The translations under genes and the position numbers were made by a program. The notes under the pieces were generated by a model. That model worked only from the letters and a program-made list of their open reading frames with translations, was not told where the DNA came from and searched no databases. This document shows positions 6,349 through 34,228 of a stretch of DNA of 38,094 bases, piece after piece; the first letter of the stretch is position 1; every line of letters begins with the position of its first letter. Origin of the DNA: an uncultured Syntrophobacterales bacterium (GTDB lineage Bacteria; Desulfobacterota; Syntrophia; Syntrophales; UBA5619); contig CAIUXU010000189.1 in assembly GCA_903903205.1 (NCBI GenBank), forward strand, positions 1-38,094, given 5' to 3'.

Positions 6349-7913
6349 CGAAACTGGAATCCTTCTCCGCCTCCATCATCGATCGCCTCCAGGAGTTCGC
6401 CTCGCACCGCTCCGCCCTCGCGCGCCATCGCTACCTGATCGGCATGAATCCACAGAAACGCTCCGAGATGTACGCCGCCGCGAAAACCACCCGGCTGACC
6501 GGCGCCTGGTCCATCGCAAACGCGAATGTAAACGACATCATCGGCCTCTCCAACCCCGCGATTCGCTCCCGCGTCCGCCAACTGATCCGGGATTTCCCCT
6601 ACCTGGCCCGCGCCGCGAATGTGATGGTCGATTATTCCATCGGTCCCGGCATCATGTTTCAGTCCAAGGCCAGGGGAGCAAGCGGCAAACCGGACAAACG
6701 CCGGATACAGCAGATCGAAGACGCCGTCCACTGGTGGATGGACGAAGCCGACGCAGCAGGCAAACTCCACTTCAACGAGATCATGCGTCTGGCCAAGCGC
6801 CAGGACCTTGAGTCCGGCGAATTCGTCATCGTGAAAACCTACCCGAAAACCGCGAACCGCTTCCTGCCGTTCGCCCTCCAGGTCTACGAGGCGGATTGGC
6901 TCACCGGCGCGCATGACAGTTACGGCGCCGGCGGCATCGGCATGGCGTCCGCCCCCGGCGACAAGGAGACCCGGCAGGGCATCGAATACGATAAGCAGAC
7001 CGGCCGCGTCACGGGTTACTGGTTTATGGACCCCTACTATGGCGGAAAAGAGGTCTATGTCCCCGCCGATCAGGTGATCCATGGCTTCGACACCCTTCGC
7101 CCTCAGCAGCTCCGGGGCGTCTCTCCCTTCGCGCCGGGAGTCCAGGTGGCCCACGACCTCTCCGACTACATGGATGCGGAGATCGACACGGCCAAGATGG
7201 CCGCCAAATATCTGGCCTTTATCAAGACCCCCGATCCCTCCTTCCGCCAGGATGCGCTTGCATTGAACGGCACATCCGCCTCCGGCGCGACCCAGAAGAT
7301 CGAAGAGATGGAAAACGCGATCATCGAATATCTCCGCCCTGGCGAAGAGGTGGACATCGCCCAGCACAACCGCCCCGGCGCCACCTTCGCCCCGTTCGTC
7401 CGCCTGGTTCTGACGATGCTCTCGATCACGACGGGCGCCCCCTATGAATTGATATCCGGCGATTACCAGGGCCTGAACTTCTCCACGGCGCGGATCGTCC
7501 GGAACGATTTTAGTCAGCAGCTCCGCCCGGTCTCCGTGCGGCACATCCGTCAATTCGGGATGCCTGCCCTGCGGACGATGCTGGACGTGGCCGTTTTGTC
7601 CGGGAAGCTCACGCTCCCCGGCTATTGGCAAGATCCCCGGCGCTATCAGGAAAGCGAATGGCAGCCGCCGGGAATGGAAGCGGTCGATCCGCTGCGCGAA
7701 GCAAAAAGCCAGATCGAGGCGATCAGTTACGGCCTGAAATCGCCCCAGGAGGTAGCCCGCGAGCGCGGCAGGGATCTTGAGGATATCTACGATGAAATCA
7801 AGGCCGCAAAAGAGATGGCCACAGAGATGGGGCTTGAATTCGCAAGCGCCAAGACCTCGGTGAAGAGCAACCCTGCCGCCATCCTGCAGGAAGTCGGAGG
7901 AGTCAGCACATGA
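6345..7913 (+). CDS. Portal protein, lambda (gpB) family
   Basis: 522 aa from ATG 6345 (ATGA overlap with gpW). N-terminal pattern: AAKTTRLTGAWSIANANVNDII...IRSRVRQLIRDFPYLARAANVMVDYSIGPGI. Position follows TerL/gpW. Confidence 0.8.
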   Translation: MTKLESFSASIIDRLQEFASHRSALARHRYLIGMNPQKRSEMYAAAKTTRLTGAWSIANANVNDIIGLSNPAIRSRVRQLIRDFPYLARAANVMVDYSIGPGIMFQSKARGASGKPDKRRIQQIEDAVHWWMDEADAAGKLHFNEIMRLAKRQDLESGEFVIVKTYPKTANRFLPFALQVYEADWLTGAHDSYGAGGIGMASAPGDKETRQGIEYDKQTGRVTGYWFMDPYYGGKEVYVPADQVIHGFDTLRPQQLRGVSPFAPGVQVAHDLSDYMDAEIDTAKMAAKYLAFIKTPDPSFRQDALALNGTSASGATQKIEEMENAIIEYLRPGEEVDIAQHNRPGATFAPFVRLVLTMLSITTGAPYELISGDYQGLNFSTARIVRNDFSQQLRPVSVRHIRQFGMPALRTMLDVAVLSGKLTLPGYWQDPRRYQESEWQPPGMEAVDPLREAKSQIEAISYGLKSPQEVARERGRDLEDIYDEIKAAKEMATEMGLEFASAKTSVKSNPAAILQEVGGVST

Positions 7914-10006
7914 AGATCGAAACCCTCAGCCGCCGCGACGCACCCGCGCCCCCGGAGATGAACTACCGCTCCGCGCCGTTTTCCGTCCGGGCGGACGGCC
8001 CGACGACGCTGGACGAAAAGAGCCGTTCCGTCGAGGTTGTCCTCTCCACGGAGAACCCGGCCACGGTGTACGACTACGACCGCGGCCGGATCAGCGAGGT
8101 CCTGCTGATGGACGGCGCGCAACTCCCGGAATCCCGGCAACTTGTCCTTTTGGACGCGCACAGCCGTTATGAAACCCAGGATGTGATCGGCTCCGTCCGC
8201 GAGATCCGCGTCGAGGGGGGGAAGATGGTCGGCCGTGCCTTCTTTTCGACGGCGCCAGAGGCCGAATCCGCCTGGACGAAGACCCGCGAGGGCCACCTGA
8301 CCGACTATTCGGTCGGCTACCGGGTGGACGAGTCGGTCTGGATCCCCGAAGGACAGACGTCTACCATCTCCGGCCGCACATTTTCCGGCCCGTTGCAGGT
8401 CTCCACGAAGTGGACCCCGCGCGAACTTTCCGCCGTACCGATCGGCGCAGATGCCGCCGCCAAGGCGCGCACCGACAATCAACCCATCAATCAACCCAAC
8501 AAGGAGGAAAAGATCATGGATCCCAAGTTACGAAGTTTTCTCGAAAGAAGCGGTATGTCGAAGACGGCGACCGAAGCGGAAGCCTGGCTCTTTTTGGAGA
8601 CCATCGGCAAGCGCGAAGAGGCCGCCCCGGCGACAGGAACAGCCCCCGCAACGATGCAGTCAGCCGCCCCGGACCTCGACAAGATCCGCACCGAGGCCAC
8701 CGGCAAGGAGCGCGACCGCATCCGCGAGATCGATGCGCTCTTGACCAAATACGAATGCCAGGAGCTGGCCCGCGAACTCATCGTCGGCGATCCCGGCAAG
8801 GAACCCCCGACGGTTGCCGACGCCCAGCGCAAGGTTTTGGACTCGCTCCAGACCAAAAGCGCGAAGCAGAACCCCGGCTTCGGCGGTGTCGTGATGGGCG
8901 CGGACGAGAAAGACAAGTTCCGGGCCGCCGCAAACGACGCCCTCGCGCTCCGCGCCGGCATGGAGATCAAGACCCCTGCCCAGGGCGCCCAGGATCTCCG
9001 GGGCTACACGCTGGTCGAAATGGCCCGCGAATGCCTGCGGATGGCCGGGATAAACCACCACGGCGGGACAAAGGAGATGGTCGGCCGCGCGCTCACCTCC
9101 TCCGATTTCCCGAACATCCTGGCGAACCTCGCCACGAAGTCGATGCAGCAGTCCTGGGAATCGGTCTCCGAGACCTGGCAGACCTGGTGCGGGATCGGCT
9201 CCGTCAGCGATTTTAAAACCTACTACGACAACGCCCTCTCCGAGCACGATGACCTGGAAGAGGTCCCCGACTCCGGCGAGATCAAATTCGGCAGCTACAG
9301 CGAGAAGACCCCCGAGACCTACAAGGCGGCCTCCTACGCAAAGAAGTTCCGGATCACCCGCGTCATGATCCTCAATGACGACATGGGCGCACTCACCGCC
9401 ATGCCCGCGCGCAGGGCGGAAGCGGCTGCCCGCAAGGTGGGCGACGTGGCCTACGCGGTGCTGACCGGCAACGGCGCGATGGGCGACGGACACGAGATCT
9501 TCGATGCGACCGACCACGCCAACGACGCCATCTCCGGCTATACCTCCGCCCCCGGCGTCACGAACATCGCCGAGGCGATCCGGGCGATGGGCGTCCAGAA
9601 GGATATCTCCGGGAAACGGCGGCTCAATATCCGCCCCGTGTTCTTCCTCGCCCCGAAGGCGCTGGAGGGCGTGTCGGAAGTTTTCTTCAAGTCCGAGCGG
9701 TTCTCCGACAACAGCACCGTGGCGACCGATTCCAGTTTCGCCTCGACCCGCGCAAACCCCTACAGCGGATCCTATTTCACCCGGATCTACGAGCCGCGCC
9801 TCGATGACGCTGACGCCTCCGGGTGGTATCTGATGGGGCCGAAGGGCCGCACCGTGAAGGTGGTCTTCCTCAACGGTCAGCAGGCGCCGACGATGGAGAT
9901 GAGGCAGCCCGGATTCACGATCGAGGGGTTCGAGTACCTGGTCGCAATCGACGCCGGCGCGTACGCGACCGATTACCGCGCCATGTACCGCAACCACGGC
10001 GAGTAG
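7910..10006 (+). CDS. Prohead protease (HK97/S78-type) - scaffold-like linker - major capsid protein fusion
   Basis: N-terminal S78 motifs: LLDAHSRYETQDVIGS (His), LTDYSVGYRV (Ser), ELSAVPIGADAAAKA. A charged helical linker follows. The C-terminal ~370 aa is capsid-like. It is a single 698-aa ORF whose ATG overlaps the portal stop (ATGA). Confidence 0.75.
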   Translation: MKIETLSRRDAPAPPEMNYRSAPFSVRADGPTTLDEKSRSVEVVLSTENPATVYDYDRGRISEVLLMDGAQLPESRQLVLLDAHSRYETQDVIGSVREIRVEGGKMVGRAFFSTAPEAESAWTKTREGHLTDYSVGYRVDESVWIPEGQTSTISGRTFSGPLQVSTKWTPRELSAVPIGADAAAKARTDNQPINQPNKEEKIMDPKLRSFLERSGMSKTATEAEAWLFLETIGKREEAAPATGTAPATMQSAAPDLDKIRTEATGKERDRIREIDALLTKYECQELARELIVGDPGKEPPTVADAQRKVLDSLQTKSAKQNPGFGGVVMGADEKDKFRAAANDALALRAGMEIKTPAQGAQDLRGYTLVEMARECLRMAGINHHGGTKEMVGRALTSSDFPNILANLATKSMQQSWESVSETWQTWCGIGSVSDFKTYYDNALSEHDDLEEVPDSGEIKFGSYSEKTPETYKAASYAKKFRITRVMILNDDMGALTAMPARRAEAAARKVGDVAYAVLTGNGAMGDGHEIFDATDHANDAISGYTSAPGVTNIAEAIRAMGVQKDISGKRRLNIRPVFFLAPKALEGVSEVFFKSERFSDNSTVATDSSFASTRANPYSGSYFTRIYEPRLDDADASGWYLMGPKGRTVKVVFLNGQQAPTMEMRQPGFTIEGFEYLVAIDAGAYATDYRAMYRNHGE
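8501..8518 (+). promoter_or_regulatory. Strong internal in-frame RBS plus ATG inside the protease-capsid ORF
   Basis: AAGGAGG at 8501-8507, 8-nt spacer, ATG at 8516-8518, in the same frame as 7910. It sits exactly at the end of the protease domain. Confidence 0.5.
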
Positions 10007-29097: not shown

Positions 29098-29158
29098 CCT
29101 AAGCGATAGCGATTTCTTGGAGAAAAGTTGATGGGAATCTTGAAGGAGGGGATTGAAA

Positions 29159-29572
29159 ATGGCCAGAATCTGCAAGTACCGGAAGTTTACCGACGCTGTA
29201 ACGACACACTGCCTGCTTGAACCGGACTATGGGCGGGAGGGCAGTGAGGAGAGAATCACGGAACTGTGTACCATCGACGGCGATACCTATGTCAGCGTGC
29301 CAGACAGCATCATCCTGCCGCCGCAGCCGGAACAGATCACGGTGGAGGAGGTCACGTTGACCGACGACCTGGCTGCCGCAATCAAGGCTGCCTCCCCCCA
29401 CGTCGCCCTGATCAACCAGCGCGTCGTGGATCGTATCCGAGAGCGATACTCCGTCAACGACGAGATCAAGATGCTCCGGATCGGCCCGAGTACAGAAACC
29501 GGAGCATATAACGATTGGGTCGAGGAGTGCCGGACGTGGGGCAGGGTGGAGAAGGAAGGATTGGGACTGTAA
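29159..29572 (+). CDS. Hypothetical protein after the fibre gene (possible fibre chaperone); C-terminus paralogous to 16181..16378
   Basis: GAAGGAGGG lies 8 nt upstream of ATG 29159. It is the last gene of the rightward late operon. See the paralog evidence for 16181..16378. Confidence 0.6.
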   Translation: MARICKYRKFTDAVTTHCLLEPDYGREGSEERITELCTIDGDTYVSVPDSIILPPQPEQITVEEVTLTDDLAAAIKAASPHVALINQRVVDRIRERYSVNDEIKMLRIGPSTETGAYNDWVEECRTWGRVEKEGLGL

Positions 29573-29585
29573 ATACCCGTAAATA

Positions 29586-29623
29586 CCCACAACAAGGCTT
29601 CCTGGTGGAAGTCTTGTTGTGGG
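29586..29623. terminator. Long hairpin at the end of the late operon (possible bidirectional terminator)
   Basis: CCCACAACAAGGCTTCC (29586-29602) / GGAAGTCTTGTTGTGGG (29607-29623), 17 bp with one G-U pair and loop TGGT. There is no clean T-run on the + strand; it is U-richer on the - strand. It is preceded by a tandem GTAAATACCC x2 (29569-29588). Confidence 0.45.
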
Positions 29624-29652
29624 ATTAACAGTCCGGCAAGGATTCTCCCGCT

Positions 29653-29766
29653 GTAGTCACTTCGTAGTCACCGATCTATTAGGAGCCTGCGGGAGTATGT
29701 CGCTATCAGGGATCATGAGGATCGGGCGAGGATGGAGAGAGGGAAAATGTAGCGACTTGTAGCGAC
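29653..29766. repeat. Candidate integrase arm-type sites (P arm of attP)
   Basis: GTAGTCAC at 29653-29660 and 29664-29671. GTAGCGAC at 29749-29756 and 29759-29766. An inverted GTCGCTA is at 29699-29705. Confidence 0.45.
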
Positions 29767-29802
29767 CAAAGAAAAAGGGCCTCCTTGGGAAACCCTTTGT
29801 GG

Positions 29803-29850
29803 TGGTGGGTCGTGCGGGAATCGGACCCGCGACCAACGGATTAAAAGTCC
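29803..29850 (-). other. attP core: 3' ~48 nt of a tRNA-Lys(UUU) gene (fragment, not a functional tRNA)
   Basis: The reverse complement reads GGACTTTTAATCCGTTGGTCGCGGGTCCGATTCCCGCACGACCCACCA. This gives anticodon loop CTTTTAA, T-arm GCGGG/CCCGC, the acceptor 3' strand and CCA. No matching 5' acceptor or D-arm lies upstream. It sits 18 nt from the int stop. Confidence 0.7.
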
Positions 29851-29868
29851 AGTCTTATATTCCTAATA

Positions 29869-31020
29869 TTAAATAGTTCCACGTTTTTCGGTAGAGTCAG
29901 ACCCGGGAACCCGCGTCAATGCTGGGTTTGTGTAGAGACCGCCGTCCGTAATTAATTGTTGAGCGCGCCTTAAATCTCCCATCGAGACGTGCGAATACCA
30001 CTGTGTCGTGGAAATCTGAGAGTGGCCGAGGAACTTTTGGATGATAGAAACATTAACGTCGGAGCCCATCAAATGTGAGGCGATACTGTGCCTGAAAAGG
30101 TGTGGCGTCACTTTCTTGGTCACGCCTGCCCGCTTGCATGTTCGAGCAATCGCCGCCCTTACATCCCCTACTGGAGCCCCTGAGCGCTTCAACGCGAACA
30201 GATAAGCGCCAGCCTCCATCGGCCACAGCTCAACCAGATCCTTGACCGCCTCCACTACCTGCTCACTCAGCGGCAGTGTCTTCTCACTCCCGCCCTTCTG
30301 CCGTACCCGTACCGTGCGACTTGCAAAATCGAAATCCTCCACACGAAGCAAGCGAACCTCATTCACCCTGAACCCGAGCGCATAAAGGCAAAGGAAAAAT
30401 GCCCGGTAGAATGGTTCGCGCTCCGCAGCCTGCATGATCGCGGCGACCTCTGCCGCCGAAAGGATGGTCGGCAGCGGTCGCTTGCTGGGCAGTTTTTCGT
30501 AGTCGATTCGCGCGATATCTATTTTCTTTTCTCGCCGCAGGTATTTCAGAAACCCACCAAAATAGTCCAGTTCTTTATTAATTGTACGGTTTTTTACCGT
30601 TTCCATCCCCGTCCTGGCTTGCTGATATATAGTCATGTGTTCAGCGGATATATCCCGGACCTGATAACTGCCCAGGATCTTCTGAAATGTCTTTTCCCAT
30701 GACAACGATACATCCTTGTAACTGGTAGGCGCACGGTGGAGTTTATACCACGACAGATAATCCGGAAACAGGTCCGCAACCGTCGCACCGTGCATATCTA
30801 CCGCCATCGTAGATTTTCGGGCCTTAAATGTTGCCTCTGCCTTTTTTGCCGCCTCCGGGCTGATCCCCTCGGGCAGCGTGAAAAGCTTGCGCCCTCCGGC
30901 TCTGCCGCTTGGCCAGTAGTCGATGCCATAACGCATGGCGGTAGAACCGCAGGCCGGGCAAGTGGTCGCTTGCTGAGGGACACGATGTCGGCATTTCGCG
31001 CATTTGGTGGTTAAGGCCAT
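29869..31020 (-). CDS. int: Tyrosine integrase with N-terminal four-Cys zinc ribbon
   Basis: 383 aa. The catalytic region is LGFRVNEVRLL (Arg)...TPHLFRHSIASHL (HxxR)...LGHSQISTTQWYSHV (Tyr). The N-terminus is CAKC-x10-CPAC. Confidence 0.9.
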   Translation of the reverse strand: MALTTKCAKCRHRVPQQATTCPACGSTAMRYGIDYWPSGRAGGRKLFTLPEGISPEAAKKAEATFKARKSTMAVDMHGATVADLFPDYLSWYKLHRAPTSYKDVSLSWEKTFQKILGSYQVRDISAEHMTIYQQARTGMETVKNRTINKELDYFGGFLKYLRREKKIDIARIDYEKLPSKRPLPTILSAAEVAAIMQAAEREPFYRAFFLCLYALGFRVNEVRLLRVEDFDFASRTVRVRQKGGSEKTLPLSEQVVEAVKDLVELWPMEAGAYLFALKRSGAPVGDVRAAIARTCKRAGVTKKVTPHLFRHSIASHLMGSDVNVSIIQKFLGHSQISTTQWYSHVSMGDLRRAQQLITDGGLYTNPALTRVPGSDSTEKRGTI

Positions 31021-31050
31021 AGTTTCAAAGTCCAGGCAATTAATTAAACG

Positions 31051-31770
31051 TTAAATAATAACCGTGTCTGCCGGTAATGTGGCATAATGCTTGCAGTGTG
31101 TGTGTGTGTGTGTGTGTGCATTCATCTCCTGGGTGAGCTGTTCGTATTTTTCCGCGTCAACCATTTGTTCTAGCGCGGCTTTCGCTCGCACGAGCGACCA
31201 TTCGGCATCCGCTAAAAGAGATAGGGTCTCCCTTATTTCCGTGTCGTCTGCCGATCGGTCGCGGAAAAACGCGATAAATACGCCACCCACCATATACAGA
31301 TCCGTGTAATACTGGATGACGCACTCCACGGCCAAATTTTTGCCGTTGCTTCTCCGGTGGACGTTTATAAATCGCCCCTGCCCCGTGTTGCGAATCCGGG
31401 CGAAATCAGTTTGGAGCAGCACCTCGAACGTGCGTAGCGGTCGGCCGATAACAGCGGCCCGATCATACCCGCTCATGATTAGATAGGCGGGGTTGCACTC
31501 AATGACATTTCCGTCCAGATCGATCTCCATATATCCGTCCGCGCAGCGGAACAGGATTGCAGCCCGCACGGCTGCCAGATTGGCCGTGATCTGGTTCCCG
31601 ATGGCCATGTCTCGATATGGCTTGAAATCAACGAGTTTCCCCGTTTTGAACATCCCCACGCCTGTTCTGCTGTAAAATTGCCCCGTCCCATTCACCATGC
31701 CGTGGGGTCCATAGTGGATGGGGTACAGATCGAAATCGCGTCCAGATTCTGGAGCTGGTGTTGATATCAC
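31051..31770 (-). CDS. Stand-alone PAS-domain protein with C-terminal helix
   Basis: PAS-like core: ILFRCADGYMEIDLDGNVIECNPAYLIMSGYDRAAVIGRPL...FINVHRRSNGKNLAVECVIQYY...GGVFIAFFRDRS. The proposed GTG start at 31770 overlaps the repressor stop (GTGA). An alternative ATG is at 31698. The track start at 31914 lies inside the repressor gene. Confidence 0.6.
   Translation of the reverse strand: MISTPAPESGRDFDLYPIHYGPHGMVNGTGQFYSRTGVGMFKTGKLVDFKPYRDMAIGNQITANLAAVRAAILFRCADGYMEIDLDGNVIECNPAYLIMSGYDRAAVIGRPLRTFEVLLQTDFARIRNTGQGRFINVHRRSNGKNLAVECVIQYYTDLYMVGGVFIAFFRDRSADDTEIRETLSLLADAEWSLVRAKAALEQMVDAEKYEQLTQEMNAHTHTHTHCKHYATLPADTVII
31096..31118. repeat. (GT)11.5 dinucleotide microsatellite
   Basis: 23 nt of uninterrupted GT repeats. 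On the - strand they encode HTHTHTH near the PAS protein C-terminus. Confidence 0.95.
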
Positions 31771-32177
31771 ATCGAGACGCGGTGTTGTTCCTGCGATTCG
31801 TTGACCTCGGACACCACGATCGGCCTGGGAAGTGCCGAAAGCCGTGCGTTTTCTTTCTCTAAAAGTGCGATGGTTTTTGCTTGCGATTCTATTGTGTCCT
31901 CTTGTGAGGCACATATCTTTTTGTACATCACCAATTCGTCGTCCCTCCGTTCGGTAATTTTTCCGAACCGCTGAGCTTCGGCGGGTTCGTCATACAACAT
32001 CGTGATGGGAATATGAAAATAATCGGCAACCTTTTTTCGAGTCTCGTAAGTGAAGTTTTTTTTTGAATATAAAATATCCTGGATTCCGCCCTGGCTGATA
32101 CCTATTTTCTTCGCCAGGCCCATCTGCGTAAGCCCTTTGCTCAATTCATTTTTTACGAGTTCAACCATTTTTTCCAT
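31767..32177 (-). CDS. XRE-family HTH repressor (CI-like slot), with no S24 peptidase domain
   Basis: HTH: LTQMGLAKKIGISQGGIQDILYSKKN. C-terminal coiled coil: TIESQAKTIALLEKENARLSAL. It is divergent from the cro-like gene. The start is uncertain (ATG 32177 or 32168, or GTG 32192). Confidence 0.7.
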   Translation of the reverse strand: MEKMVELVKNELSKGLTQMGLAKKIGISQGGIQDILYSKKNFTYETRKKVADYFHIPITMLYDEPAEAQRFGKITERRDDELVMYKKICASQEDTIESQAKTIALLEKENARLSALPRPIVVSEVNESQEQHRVSM

Positions 32178-32205
32178 GATTCTTCTATACACCGTAATAT
32201 TTTTC

Positions 32206-32233
32206 TTGCAATTTAAAATTTCTGCGGTATTAT
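32206..32233 (+). promoter_or_regulatory. Sigma70-like rightward early promoter in the divergent switch region
   Basis: TTGCAA (32206-32211), 16-nt AT-rich spacer, TATTAT (32228-32233), ~30 nt upstream of the cro-like ATG. The host sigma specificity is unknown. Confidence 0.4.
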
Positions 32234-32264
32234 TCTACCCCAATGCTCGAACAAGGAAGGGACA

Positions 32265-32528
32265 ATGCAAAGATTCAGCCGAAACTCGATTAAAGTGCTC
32301 AGGGCATCCAAGGGGATGAGCCTGAAGGATTTCGCGGAAAGCGTTGGTGGCAATGTAACACGACAGTTAGTATCTCAATGGGAAAACGGAACGCAGGTGC
32401 CATCCGTACTTTCTCTATTGAAGATCGTGAACGCCCATAAGGTCCCGTTCGATATTTTTTTTGAGTCTGATAAAAACAGCAGTGGTTTTTGTGCAGGTAA
32501 ACAACCATCCCCAGGAGGCCCAACATGA
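32265..32528 (+). CDS. XRE-family HTH protein (Cro-like slot)
   Basis: MSLKDFAESVGGNVTRQLVSQWENGTQVPSVLSLLKI is a typical XRE HTH. AAGGAAGGG RBS. Confidence 0.7.
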   Translation: MQRFSRNSIKVLRASKGMSLKDFAESVGGNVTRQLVSQWENGTQVPSVLSLLKIVNAHKVPFDIFFESDKNSSGFCAGKQPSPGGPT

Positions 32529-32737
32529 TGCAATTTAATACGCCCATCACCATCGCGGAAATAGACAAACTGGATGAGACGTTCACATTCAGACTCCCCG
32601 AGGCGACGAAAAAACAAGTGGATAAGCTCTCCTCGCAGCAGAAAAAAAAGCTGTCAATGTCGTTATTGTTGACCACTGCCGAGATCCTCCACGAGGCTAC
32701 TTTTGATGCGCGGAAGTATTTAAGCACTGCGGATTAA
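32525..32737 (+). CDS. Hypothetical early protein
   Basis: 70-aa ORF with an ATGA overlap with the cro-like gene. Confidence 0.5.
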   Translation: MMQFNTPITIAEIDKLDETFTFRLPEATKKQVDKLSSQQKKKLSMSLLLTTAEILHEATFDARKYLSTAD

Positions 32738-32785
32738 TTGTAGCAACGAGAACAATGTCCACTTAGTTTTTGATGGGGGCTCTCC

Positions 32786-33136
32786 ATGAACGAACGCGAC
32801 GAAATTCAAGCACTTAAAGACAGAATCGAACGCCTTGAACACTGTATAGTTTTTGGCAAACCACCGGATATTGCCGACCAGATGCTTTGTGACGCGATCG
32901 AGCGGGGAGATCGAAAAACCGTCGCGTTATGGGCCGCATCACAGACGCCCAACAGCCTTCTTCCACCGGAGCTGGAGGACAACCCAGTGACCAGAGTACA
33001 GGTCGCGAAACGTGGAAATCTTGACAGACACCGGAGAACGTCAAGACCCGGACCGAGCGGGAACGCCTACGCCAACGCACAGCGCATGGGAGCCTCGGGA
33101 ACCGATCGCACCGGCAGCACGGCGACAAACTGCTGA
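32786..33136 (+). CDS. Hypothetical early protein
   Basis: 116-aa ORF with an N-terminal coiled coil and a low-complexity tail. Confidence 0.45.
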   Translation: MNERDEIQALKDRIERLEHCIVFGKPPDIADQMLCDAIERGDRKTVALWAASQTPNSLLPPELEDNPVTRVQVAKRGNLDRHRRTSRPGPSGNAYANAQRMGASGTDRTGSTATNC

Positions 33137-33856: not shown

Positions 33857-34228
33857 ATGATCGGCCTGACAACACATCCCGGAAAATATGAAGAGGTCGG
33901 CGCGGAGATCGGCCGCCTGGTGGACAAAAAGCAGCAGGCATACGGGCGATCCTTTGAGACCTGCGAAAAGGCGCTGGCGCTTTTATGCCCGGACAAGCTA
34001 CGCGCCGATCAGTACGGCCTGGCCCTGGCCTTCGCCCGTTCCTGGGACAAATGGAGCCGCCTCTTCTCCGACCCCACCGCCTTCGGCGAAGAGCCCAAAA
34101 AAGACCTCGCCGGATATGCCCTTTTGATGAATGGCGATTTGGAAGTTGACCCCCCCGGGGGGGTATGTTGCAAACCTTCAGTCGATTCAAAGAAAGAATT
34201 TCTCGAACCCTTTAAGGAGGTCAACTAA
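33857..34228 (+). CDS. Hypothetical protein (all-alpha, possibly DUF1599/MazG-like)
   Basis: AAGGGAGGG RBS. The pattern KKQQAYGRSFE...SWDKWSRL...DLAGYALL only weakly recalls DUF1599-type proteins. Confidence 0.35.
   Translation: MIGLTTHPGKYEEVGAEIGRLVDKKQQAYGRSFETCEKALALLCPDKLRADQYGLALAFARSWDKWSRLFSDPTAFGEEPKKDLAGYALLMNGDLEVDPPGGVCCKPSVDSKKEFLEPFKEVN

Follow-up and report, generated by a model that had tools for sequence, protein, structure and literature searches.

What does a protein built around a single PAS domain do between the repressor and the integrase of a temperate phage? The question is raised by a stretch of 38,094 bases (~38 kb) from an uncultured Syntrophobacterales bacterium (contig CAIUXU010000189.1; hereafter the window), which represents the whole genome of a temperate tailed phage, a siphovirus. 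Its minus strand carries, between the structural genes and the early operon, a leftward lysogeny unit in which a repressor gene is followed by an open reading frame (ORF) for a PAS-like protein and then by the gene for a tyrosine integrase. An earlier note on this locus, made from the sequence, proposed that the repressor is non-cleavable, that its gene is translationally coupled to that of the PAS protein, and that the PAS protein could modulate the repressor through the helical tails of the two proteins. We report here that related lysogeny modules carry variable cargo at the site between the repressor and integrase genes, and we tentatively favor the view that the PAS protein is an acquired accessory product of this slot.

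Results

The ORF Encodes a Short PAS Protein

The maximal ORF between the repressor and the integrase encodes 239 amino acids (aa) and matched PAS families in Pfam, with PAS_9 scoring 38.9 bits against a cut-off of 27 (E=1.1e-9, residues 78-173), and with PAS (26.7 bits against 22.6) and PAS_8 (23.5 bits against 21.8) both above the curated gathering score. An HMMER scan of 1.84 billion representatives gave 2,645 matches at E<=1e-3, all of them on residues ~70-175; the PAS protein itself excepted, all were PAS modules within long multidomain sensors. The 16 residues that are invariant or nearly invariant in this subfamily (D78, G79, D84, G87, N93, Y96, G101, Y102, E106, G130, F134, H138, G143, E149, F168 and D171) are all kept in the PAS protein, despite an identity of only 22-31% to the members.

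Structure prediction led to the same assignment. An AlphaFold model computed from the single sequence had a predicted local distance difference test score (pLDDT) of 37, and it was replaced by a model based on a 53-row multiple sequence alignment of PAS modules taken from the HMMER matches. This second model has a pLDDT of 78 overall and of 88-98 in the core, which is composed of the five strands of a PAS fold (residues 79-83, 88-92, 131-139, 145-155 and 164-171); residues 1-50 and the last ~18 residues are unstructured in it. When the model was compared with structures in the PDB by use of Foldseek, 588 matches were obtained at E<=1e-3, PAS/LOV domains first. At the top were 3bwl, an HTR-like PAS domain from Haloarcula, and a number of "short LOV" proteins in full length (E 3e-9 to 2e-8), these having the same helix-core-helix layout as the PAS protein. 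Profile search, HMMER, AlphaFold and Foldseek thus agree on the PAS-like domain that the earlier note had read from the sequence, and the amphipathic helix placed behind it by that note is helical in the model (residues 172-220; Table 1).

The PAS protein also lacks a DNA-binding domain of its own, as had been claimed, there being no match to a helix-turn-helix (HTH) family in Pfam. It contains neither an HEXXH motif nor a match to a peptidase family, by which an identity of the ImmA type was rejected, and no family for it was found in PHROGs or PADLOC. Helices at residues 52-75 and 172-220, with no further Pfam domain in the 239 aa, are the features of the short, effector-less PAS/LOV proteins. 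These predictions suggest that the gene encodes a functional-looking "short PAS" unit, made up of an N-cap helix, a core and a Jalpha-like helix, and having no output domain.

We also examined the protein for the signatures of known PAS cofactors. BLASTP comparison with the LOV core of YtvA placed GRPLRTFE opposite the LOV motif GxNCRFLQ (GKNCRFLQ), with Leu substituted for the photoactive Cys and Pro for the Asn; the PAS protein is therefore not a flavin photoreceptor of the LOV type. A heme-PAS protein of the FixL/DosP type was rejected by a sequence-level test, since the predicted Falpha helix (residues 123-129) has no proximal histidine. Histidines are found only at residues 19, 23 and 138 and in the tail (219-228). 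Of the profile search and structure prediction suggested in the earlier note, the PAS fold was thus recovered but the heme and LOV-flavin ligand signatures were not, and no cofactor could be assigned to the protein from sequence motifs.

The PAS Protein Has No Close Relatives

A word-indexed search of 5.8 billion clustered proteins for close homologues returned the PAS protein itself only. Nothing was found by tblastn against 50,697 phage records (INPHARED), and no relative of the PAS protein was found in IMG/VR, in 185,579 GTDB species genomes or in JGI metagenomes. The absence of an HTH together with the tblastn result led us to reject a receptor of the VqmA type. The protein is present on three further metagenome contigs in ENA, all of them from the same phage and 99.8-99.9% identical to the window over 10.8-13.6 kb. 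Although the PAS coding sequence is identical in the four independently assembled contigs, a repeat near its 3' end excepted, such near-identity means that these contigs carry no evolutionary information beyond an intact ORF.

Two further points bear on the origin of the protein. Structural matches in BFVD include stand-alone PAS proteins of 165-240 aa from other uncultured phages and from Cellulophaga phages, and PAS-only proteins are therefore not new to phages. Identity to individual PAS modules of the family does not exceed 31%, which indicates that no sequenced host kinase was its recent source.

The Slot Between Repressor and Integrase Varies in Content Among Relatives

If the PAS protein and the repressor worked together, their pairing might be conserved in related prophages, a check that the earlier note had called for. 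Relatives of the lysogeny module were sampled in two ways, by way of the integrase and by way of the repressor. The integrase led to 12 loci with integrases 34-63% identical to that of the window, most of which keep its N-terminal zinc ribbon. These loci have a common layout, with an HTH repressor, then 0-3 short genes, then int, all on one strand, but the genes in the slot between repressor and int are unrelated from locus to locus (Table 1). No match to the PAS protein was obtained in any of the 12 loci by phmmer, and no PAS domain is encoded in their slots. Among the repressors of these loci only one (L014) has an S24 domain. The integrase relatives are scattered over metagenome-assembled genomes of Phycisphaerales, Methylococcaceae and Syntrophorhabdaceae.

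The repressor had no relatives in IMG/VR. JGI metagenomes yielded one relative (L017), on a contig that ends 56 nucleotides (nt) past the stop codon, and three weak or short matches. A profile made from the window repressor and L017 recovered the protein P0155; among the repressor relatives with a visible downstream gene, it is the closest. Its HTH is 51% identical, and its C-terminus is of the same design as that of the window repressor, a short zipper being followed by a P..PxVV tail. On six contigs the P0155 gene is divergent from a cro-like gene and is followed by a gene for a 79-aa protein with two transmembrane (TM) segments and then by int; the linked integrase belongs to a different family and is 22% identical to that of the window. 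Because P0155 has no PAS neighbor, this repressor family works without PAS, and because the zipper and PxVV tail are found in P0155 all the same, the tail looks like a self-contained oligomerization element. The repressor-PAS pairing is accordingly not conserved, and is limited to nearly identical contigs of one phage. In both integrase contexts, the space between the repressor and int genes has the behavior of a cargo slot.

The slot (L003-L016 and L021-L026) is a hot spot of small accessory genes, mostly for membrane or secreted proteins. Proteins that combine a zinc ribbon with a TM segment recur in it, as do tiny proteins with 1-2 TM segments, which are candidate superinfection-exclusion factors.

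The Repressor Is Not of the Self-Cleaving Class

The N-terminal part of the repressor (residues ~1-65) is an XRE-type HTH, which a linker joins to a short zipper-like helix at residues ~93-116; GTG 32192 and ATG 32168 are alternative starts. No match to Peptidase_S24 was found in the 136/141-aa repressor even at E<=1, the repressor of L014 serving as a positive control with an S24 match of 2.7e-24. The sequence also contains no AG/CG dipeptide, i.e. no Ala-Gly/Cys-Gly cleavage site. With neither the S24 domain nor the cleavage site, the repressor falls outside the autocleaving class of LexA and lambda CI, and the HTH_3 match (Table 1) supports its description in the earlier note as a non-cleavable XRE repressor. 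The coiled coil claimed for it fared less well. Residues 93-116 do form a zipper-like stretch of 3 heptads, with I-Q-I-L-N-L at the a/d positions, but crude heptad scoring did not separate this stretch from shuffles (p about 0.17), nor was heptad scoring of the two helical tails, in the repressor and in the PAS protein, significant.

The PAS Gene Follows the Repressor on One Strand but Need Not Be Coupled to It

The gap between the repressor and PAS genes is 0-68 nt, depending on the start codon, and 30 nt separate the PAS stop codon (at 31051) from the integrase ATG (31020), all on one strand, as the earlier note had it. Gene order bears out the leftward repressor-PAS-int arrangement, divergent from a cro-like gene. 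Consensus scans of positions 29500..33000 for promoters and terminators, which constitute weak evidence, revealed no terminator-like site in the leftward unit until past attP.

Coupling of translation had been proposed from the sequence GTGA at 31770-31767, in which a GTG overlaps the TGA of the repressor. The overlap is literally present. Given a TGA stop, NTGA contains a start codon of table 11 when N is A, G or T (3/4 bases), and the overlap is therefore close to chance expectation. No Shine-Dalgarno (SD) sequence was found upstream of GTG 31770, whereas most genes of the phage carry AGGAGG-type sites; the repressor ATG (32177) likewise has no SD sequence. We used codon usage as a further guide, for which in-frame windows of known genes average log-odds of 0.50 +/- 0.22. 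The log-odds were about 0 (-0.06) for residues 1-24, indicating no coding signal, rose to +0.2 to +0.3 for residues 25-54, and reached a gene-like +0.43 in the core. Public gene calls for the identical protein start at ATG 31698, 68 nt past the repressor stop, and the context most like an SD sequence (AGG at -10..-8) belongs to a further candidate, ATG 31653. Judging from these signals, the real start of the PAS gene is likely to be ATG 31698 or ATG 31653. Taken with the disorder of residues 1-50, they do not sustain the claim of translational coupling.

Two other possibilities for this region were tried. A 287-aa ORF opening at ATG 31914 was rejected because its overlapping part scores -0.41 in the PAS frame. 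As to an RNA element, the spacer between repressor and PAS genes has no Rfam match, and the predicted fold of 31640..31790 was not better than that of shuffled sequences (z=-1.3).

A Dinucleotide Repeat Varies at the End of the PAS Gene

Near its 3' end the PAS reading frame runs through a (CA)n tract, which encodes (His-Thr)n. The window has (CA)11 at this place, and the contigs L001 and L002 have (CA)16; a third contig, of 38,035 nt, also has (CA)16, judged from its identical protein sequence. The difference of 10 nt shifts the frame of the last 15-20 codons and results in alternative C-terminal tails, and each of the three possible frames reaches a stop codon 19-30 nt ahead of the int ATG. 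Over the 13.6 kb that L001 shares with the window, only one patch of 9 changes differs besides the tract. The difference in (CA)n is either slipped-strand (phase-variable) hypervariability or an effect of assembly.

The patch of 9 changes (34087..34172) lies inside the gene 33857..34228 and includes a compensating +1/-1 pair of indels. It separates the window from both L001 and L002, and has the appearance of a short recoded stretch in an early gene.

Other Features of the Phage

The coordinates of the features are collected in Table 1. The plus strand (~1 to 29.1 kb) encodes the large terminase, a head protease-capsid fusion, the tape-measure protein and large tail proteins, as well as a Toprim-like protein. 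The head protein is a single ORF of 698 aa (7910..10006) that matches both a head maturation protease and a major head protein (phrog_4523, "major head and protease protein"); the presence of both matches in one ORF indicates a fused protease-capsid gene. The rightward early operon extends from 32.3 kb on, has the cro-like gene as its first gene, and includes a D5-type primase (Pfam, PHROG). Antirepressors of the Ant, Bro, KilA and ImmA families were sought in the phage with Pfam and PHROGs, and none was recognizable. The whole window gave no match to Rfam.

In the switch region that separates the divergent repressor and cro-like genes, the sequence TTGCAA-16-TATTAT on the plus strand is a promoter-like site for the cro gene. 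The hexamer TTGCAA (32206-32211) is palindromic and could serve as the -35 element of both divergent promoters. Transcription from the minus-strand candidate, TTGCAA-16-TATAGA, might start at about the repressor ATG, and a leaderless repressor mRNA similar to that from lambda PRM is thus possible. Operator repeats were sought in this region, with a direct repeat of 8 nt and a weak inverted repeat of 15 nt as the sole result.

We take 29803..29850 to be the attP core because it matches the 3' part of tRNA-Lys and because no complete tRNA was found there by ARAGORN. Between the tail genes and attP, at the prophage end opposite to the slot and likewise a common site for cargo, is a plus-strand ORF of 139 aa (29153..29572) with no match in Pfam, PHROG or PADLOC.

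The zinc ribbon at the N-terminus of the integrase (30946..31020) is an unusual N-terminal module in a tyrosine integrase. When the integrase was aligned with its closest relative, that of L003, the cysteines of the ribbon proved invariant between the two sequences, and a Cys-rich, zinc-ribbon-like N-terminus is found in several more of the related integrases. Reverse transcriptases (RVT_1) are encoded in the related phages L003 (7715..8746), L021 (9177..10205) and L022, where a gene matching PF21916 (mtd_2nd) adjoins the reverse transcriptase (7655..8683 and 9037..9620). The combination of RVT_1 and the mtd_2nd gene may point to diversity-generating retroelements in the neighborhood of the tail genes; no such element was noticed in the window.

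Table 1. Features of the lysogeny region of the window, and content of the slot between repressor and int in related loci.
Feature	Position	Strand	Evidence or content
Terminator-like hairpin with T-run, end of leftward unit, beyond attP	29774..29798	-	Promoter/terminator consensus scan
attP core, resembles 3' part of tRNA-Lys	29803..29850		88-90% identity to tRNA-Lys genes and to annotated attP of Haemophilus phages HP1/HP2/S2
Tyrosine integrase, 383 aa, N-terminal CxxC...CxxC zinc ribbon	29869..31020	-	Phage_integrase E=5.2e-34
Maximal PAS ORF, 239 aa, opens at GTG overlapping repressor stop	31051..31770	-	Open frame; Pfam PAS matches
(CA)11 tract encoding (His-Thr)n, 3' end of PAS gene	31097..31118	-	Contig comparison
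Long C-terminal Jalpha/signaling-helix-like amphipathic helix, residues 172-220	31111..31257	-	AlphaFold helices 172-203 and 206-220, pLDDT 80-94
PAS core, residues 76-171	31258..31545	-	PAS_9, HMMER, AlphaFold pLDDT 88-98, Foldseek
N-cap (A'alpha-like) helix, residues 52-75	31546..31617	-	AlphaFold, pLDDT 76-88
CI-slot repressor, 136 aa	31767..32177	-	HTH_3 E=1.1e-5; PHROG repressor/regulator families
Switch region, repressor to cro-like gene	32178..32264		Plus-strand promoter-like TTGCAA-16-TATTAT (scan); minus-strand candidate TTGCAA-16-TATAGA (by eye)
cro-like HTH protein, 87 aa, first gene of rightward early operon	32265..32528	+	HTH_3 E=3e-12; PHROG repressor families
Slot of L003			SWIM-like 201-aa protein, 184-aa protein, zinc-ribbon-TM peptide
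Slot of L004, L011			Secreted Cys-rich or DUF2845 proteins
Slot of L005, L012, L015			Zinc-ribbon-TM proteins
Slot of L006			SNase homologue
Slot of L009			DUF2188
Slot of L010			Dcm methylase, Vsr, YjzC
Slot of L013, L016			Small TM proteins
Slot of L014			bPH_3-SHOCT

Discussion

The variable content of the slot and the lack of conservation of the repressor-PAS pairing favor an accessory role of the moron type, and our tentative interpretation is that the PAS protein is an acquired sensor or adaptor that is made in the lysogen from a variable cargo slot. The gene would be transcribed together with the repressor in the lysogen, much as rexAB is after cI in lambda. Its product would dimerize through the N-cap and Jalpha helices, may bind a small-molecule or redox cue, and would pass this cue through the helices to a partner by protein contact, the partner more probably being a host signaling protein with PAS or coiled-coil modules than an obligatory component of the phage switch. 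The conserved subfamily residues, the gene-like codons of the core, the short-PAS layout, the terminator-free unit and the variable slot are all consistent with such a role. Several points weigh against it. No partner, ligand or cofactor could be assigned to the PAS protein. Content that varies between related modules is what a moron slot should have, but the scan of 29500..33000 found no promoter- or terminator-like site flanking the PAS gene, unlike the situation in classical morons. The PAS protein is not recently derived from any sequenced host kinase, so that a decoy role towards a specific host kinase is speculative. Finally, the phage has no recognizable antirepressor and its repressor is not self-cleaving; this leaves a gap in the input for induction, into which the PAS protein could fit.

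In a different interpretation, the non-cleavable repressor has the PAS protein as its sensor, which occupies the position of ImmA. On a ligand, redox or light cue the PAS protein would bind the repressor through the helical segments and either release it from the operators or stabilize it there, so that control of induction would be independent of RecA. The order of repressor, second gene and int, divergent from the lytic side, is that of ImmR-ImmA; the repressor has no S24 domain and no other antirepressor candidate is recognizable. Control of transcription factors through contact with PAS proteins is known, NifL-NifA and PpsR being among the structural matches, and a PAS-containing phage receptor, VqmA-Phage, controls lysis (PMC8284805). 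The pairing is, however, conserved in neither the repressor family nor the integrase family, relatives whose non-S24 repressors are just as short do without PAS, overlap-type coupling is unsupported, and the zipper and PxVV tail are present in P0155 as well. The comparative test thus lends no support to modulation of the repressor through the helical tails, and we regard a partnership of the two proteins as less probable than an accessory role. Less probable still is an elaborated version, in which a PAS sensor made from the repressor's own transcript docks on the repressor as a non-protease in the position of ImmA, induction answers a small-molecule, redox or metal cue and not RecA, and the (CA)n tails provide phase-variable tuning.

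Two other interpretations are both less likely than an accessory sensor or a partner of the repressor. The ORF could be a passenger, neutral or in decay, that recombination brought in as a piece of a multi-PAS sensor gene and that has no function for the phage, in keeping with its orphan status, its ill-defined start codon and a hypervariable (CA)n tract that scrambles the C-terminal tail. But all hallmark residues of the family are kept at about 27% identity, codon usage in the core is gene-like, the N-cap-core-Jalpha unit is intact and confidently modeled, and, the repeat aside, four independently assembled contigs have the same coding sequence, making this improbable. Improbable too, in our judgment, is an action of the PAS protein on recombination, as an accessory or directionality factor that responds to a signal and serves the integrase, whose gene starts 30 nt further on. 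The PAS gene adjoins int in one unit, and because every frame of the (CA)n tract stops shortly before the int ATG, termination-reinitiation could link translation of int to that of the PAS gene. Known directionality factors are small basic DNA-bending proteins, whereas the PAS protein has no DNA-binding domain, and the upstream neighbors of related integrases are unrelated to one another.

The unit shares features with several known systems without being equivalent to any of them. In the ImmR-ImmA(-Int) module of ICEBs1 and of phages, a non-S24 XRE repressor, a second gene and int are found on one strand and divergent from the rest, int following immR and immA in the ICEBs1 unit. The second gene of ICEBs1, immA, encodes a signal-responsive inactivator of the repressor (PMC10098952). 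The gene order is thus shared, but ImmA is an HEXXH zinc metalloprotease (COG2856) that cleaves ImmR, and the PAS protein has no such motif and no protease match. The lysogenic operon of P2-type phages is similar in that a short repressor not cleavable by the SOS response comes first, the integrase is co-expressed, and a cro/cox-like gene is opposed; in P2 it expresses C and integrase together, opposed by Cox (PMC1904263, PMC3936717). P2 differs in having converging promoters (Pe and Pc) and C directly before int, compared to divergent promoters and an inserted PAS gene in the window, and no sequence relationship to P2 C was found. As in HP1, attP adjoins int. The cI-rexA-rexB arrangement of lambda also has accessory genes directly downstream of, and co-directional with, the immunity repressor, the content of this position varying between relatives of the window. 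The rexAB genes are expressed in the lysogen and are dispensable for the switch. The Rex proteins are unrelated to PAS, and none of the PADLOC defense families matches the PAS protein.

Two systems resemble the PAS protein itself. The short LOV proteins (PpSB1-LOV, PF5-LOV, SBW25-LOV and MrLOVe; E 5e-9 to 2e-8) are likewise stand-alone units of N-cap, core and Jalpha with no effector. In these proteins and in sensor kinases, the flanking helices dimerize and signaling occurs by protein-protein contact. They differ from the window protein in having the photoactive Cys, replaced there by Leu, and they are encoded on bacterial chromosomes, not by phages. VqmA-Phage of vibriophage VP882 is a phage protein that contains PAS, and as a PAS-HTH factor that activates an antirepressor gene it lets a signal other than SOS act on the choice between lysis and lysogeny (PMC8284805). 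The PAS protein of the window differs in lacking a DNA-binding domain and any detectable sequence similarity to proteins of the 50,697 phage records. Our literature searches brought up no description of a PAS-only protein inside a repressor-integrase unit, and VqmA-Phage was the only characterized PAS regulator of a phage among their results.

Temperate phages of uncultured bacteria mostly have short repressors that are not self-cleaving, and how they sense the conditions for induction is largely obscure. The hot spot in the slot, found with two unrelated integrase families, stands as a result on its own. The PAS protein is one orphan case, which limits the weight of that finding. The PAS-only protein in the repressor-integrase unit provides a testable candidate for a non-SOS input to the phage switch, or else for a phage-borne modulator of host signaling.

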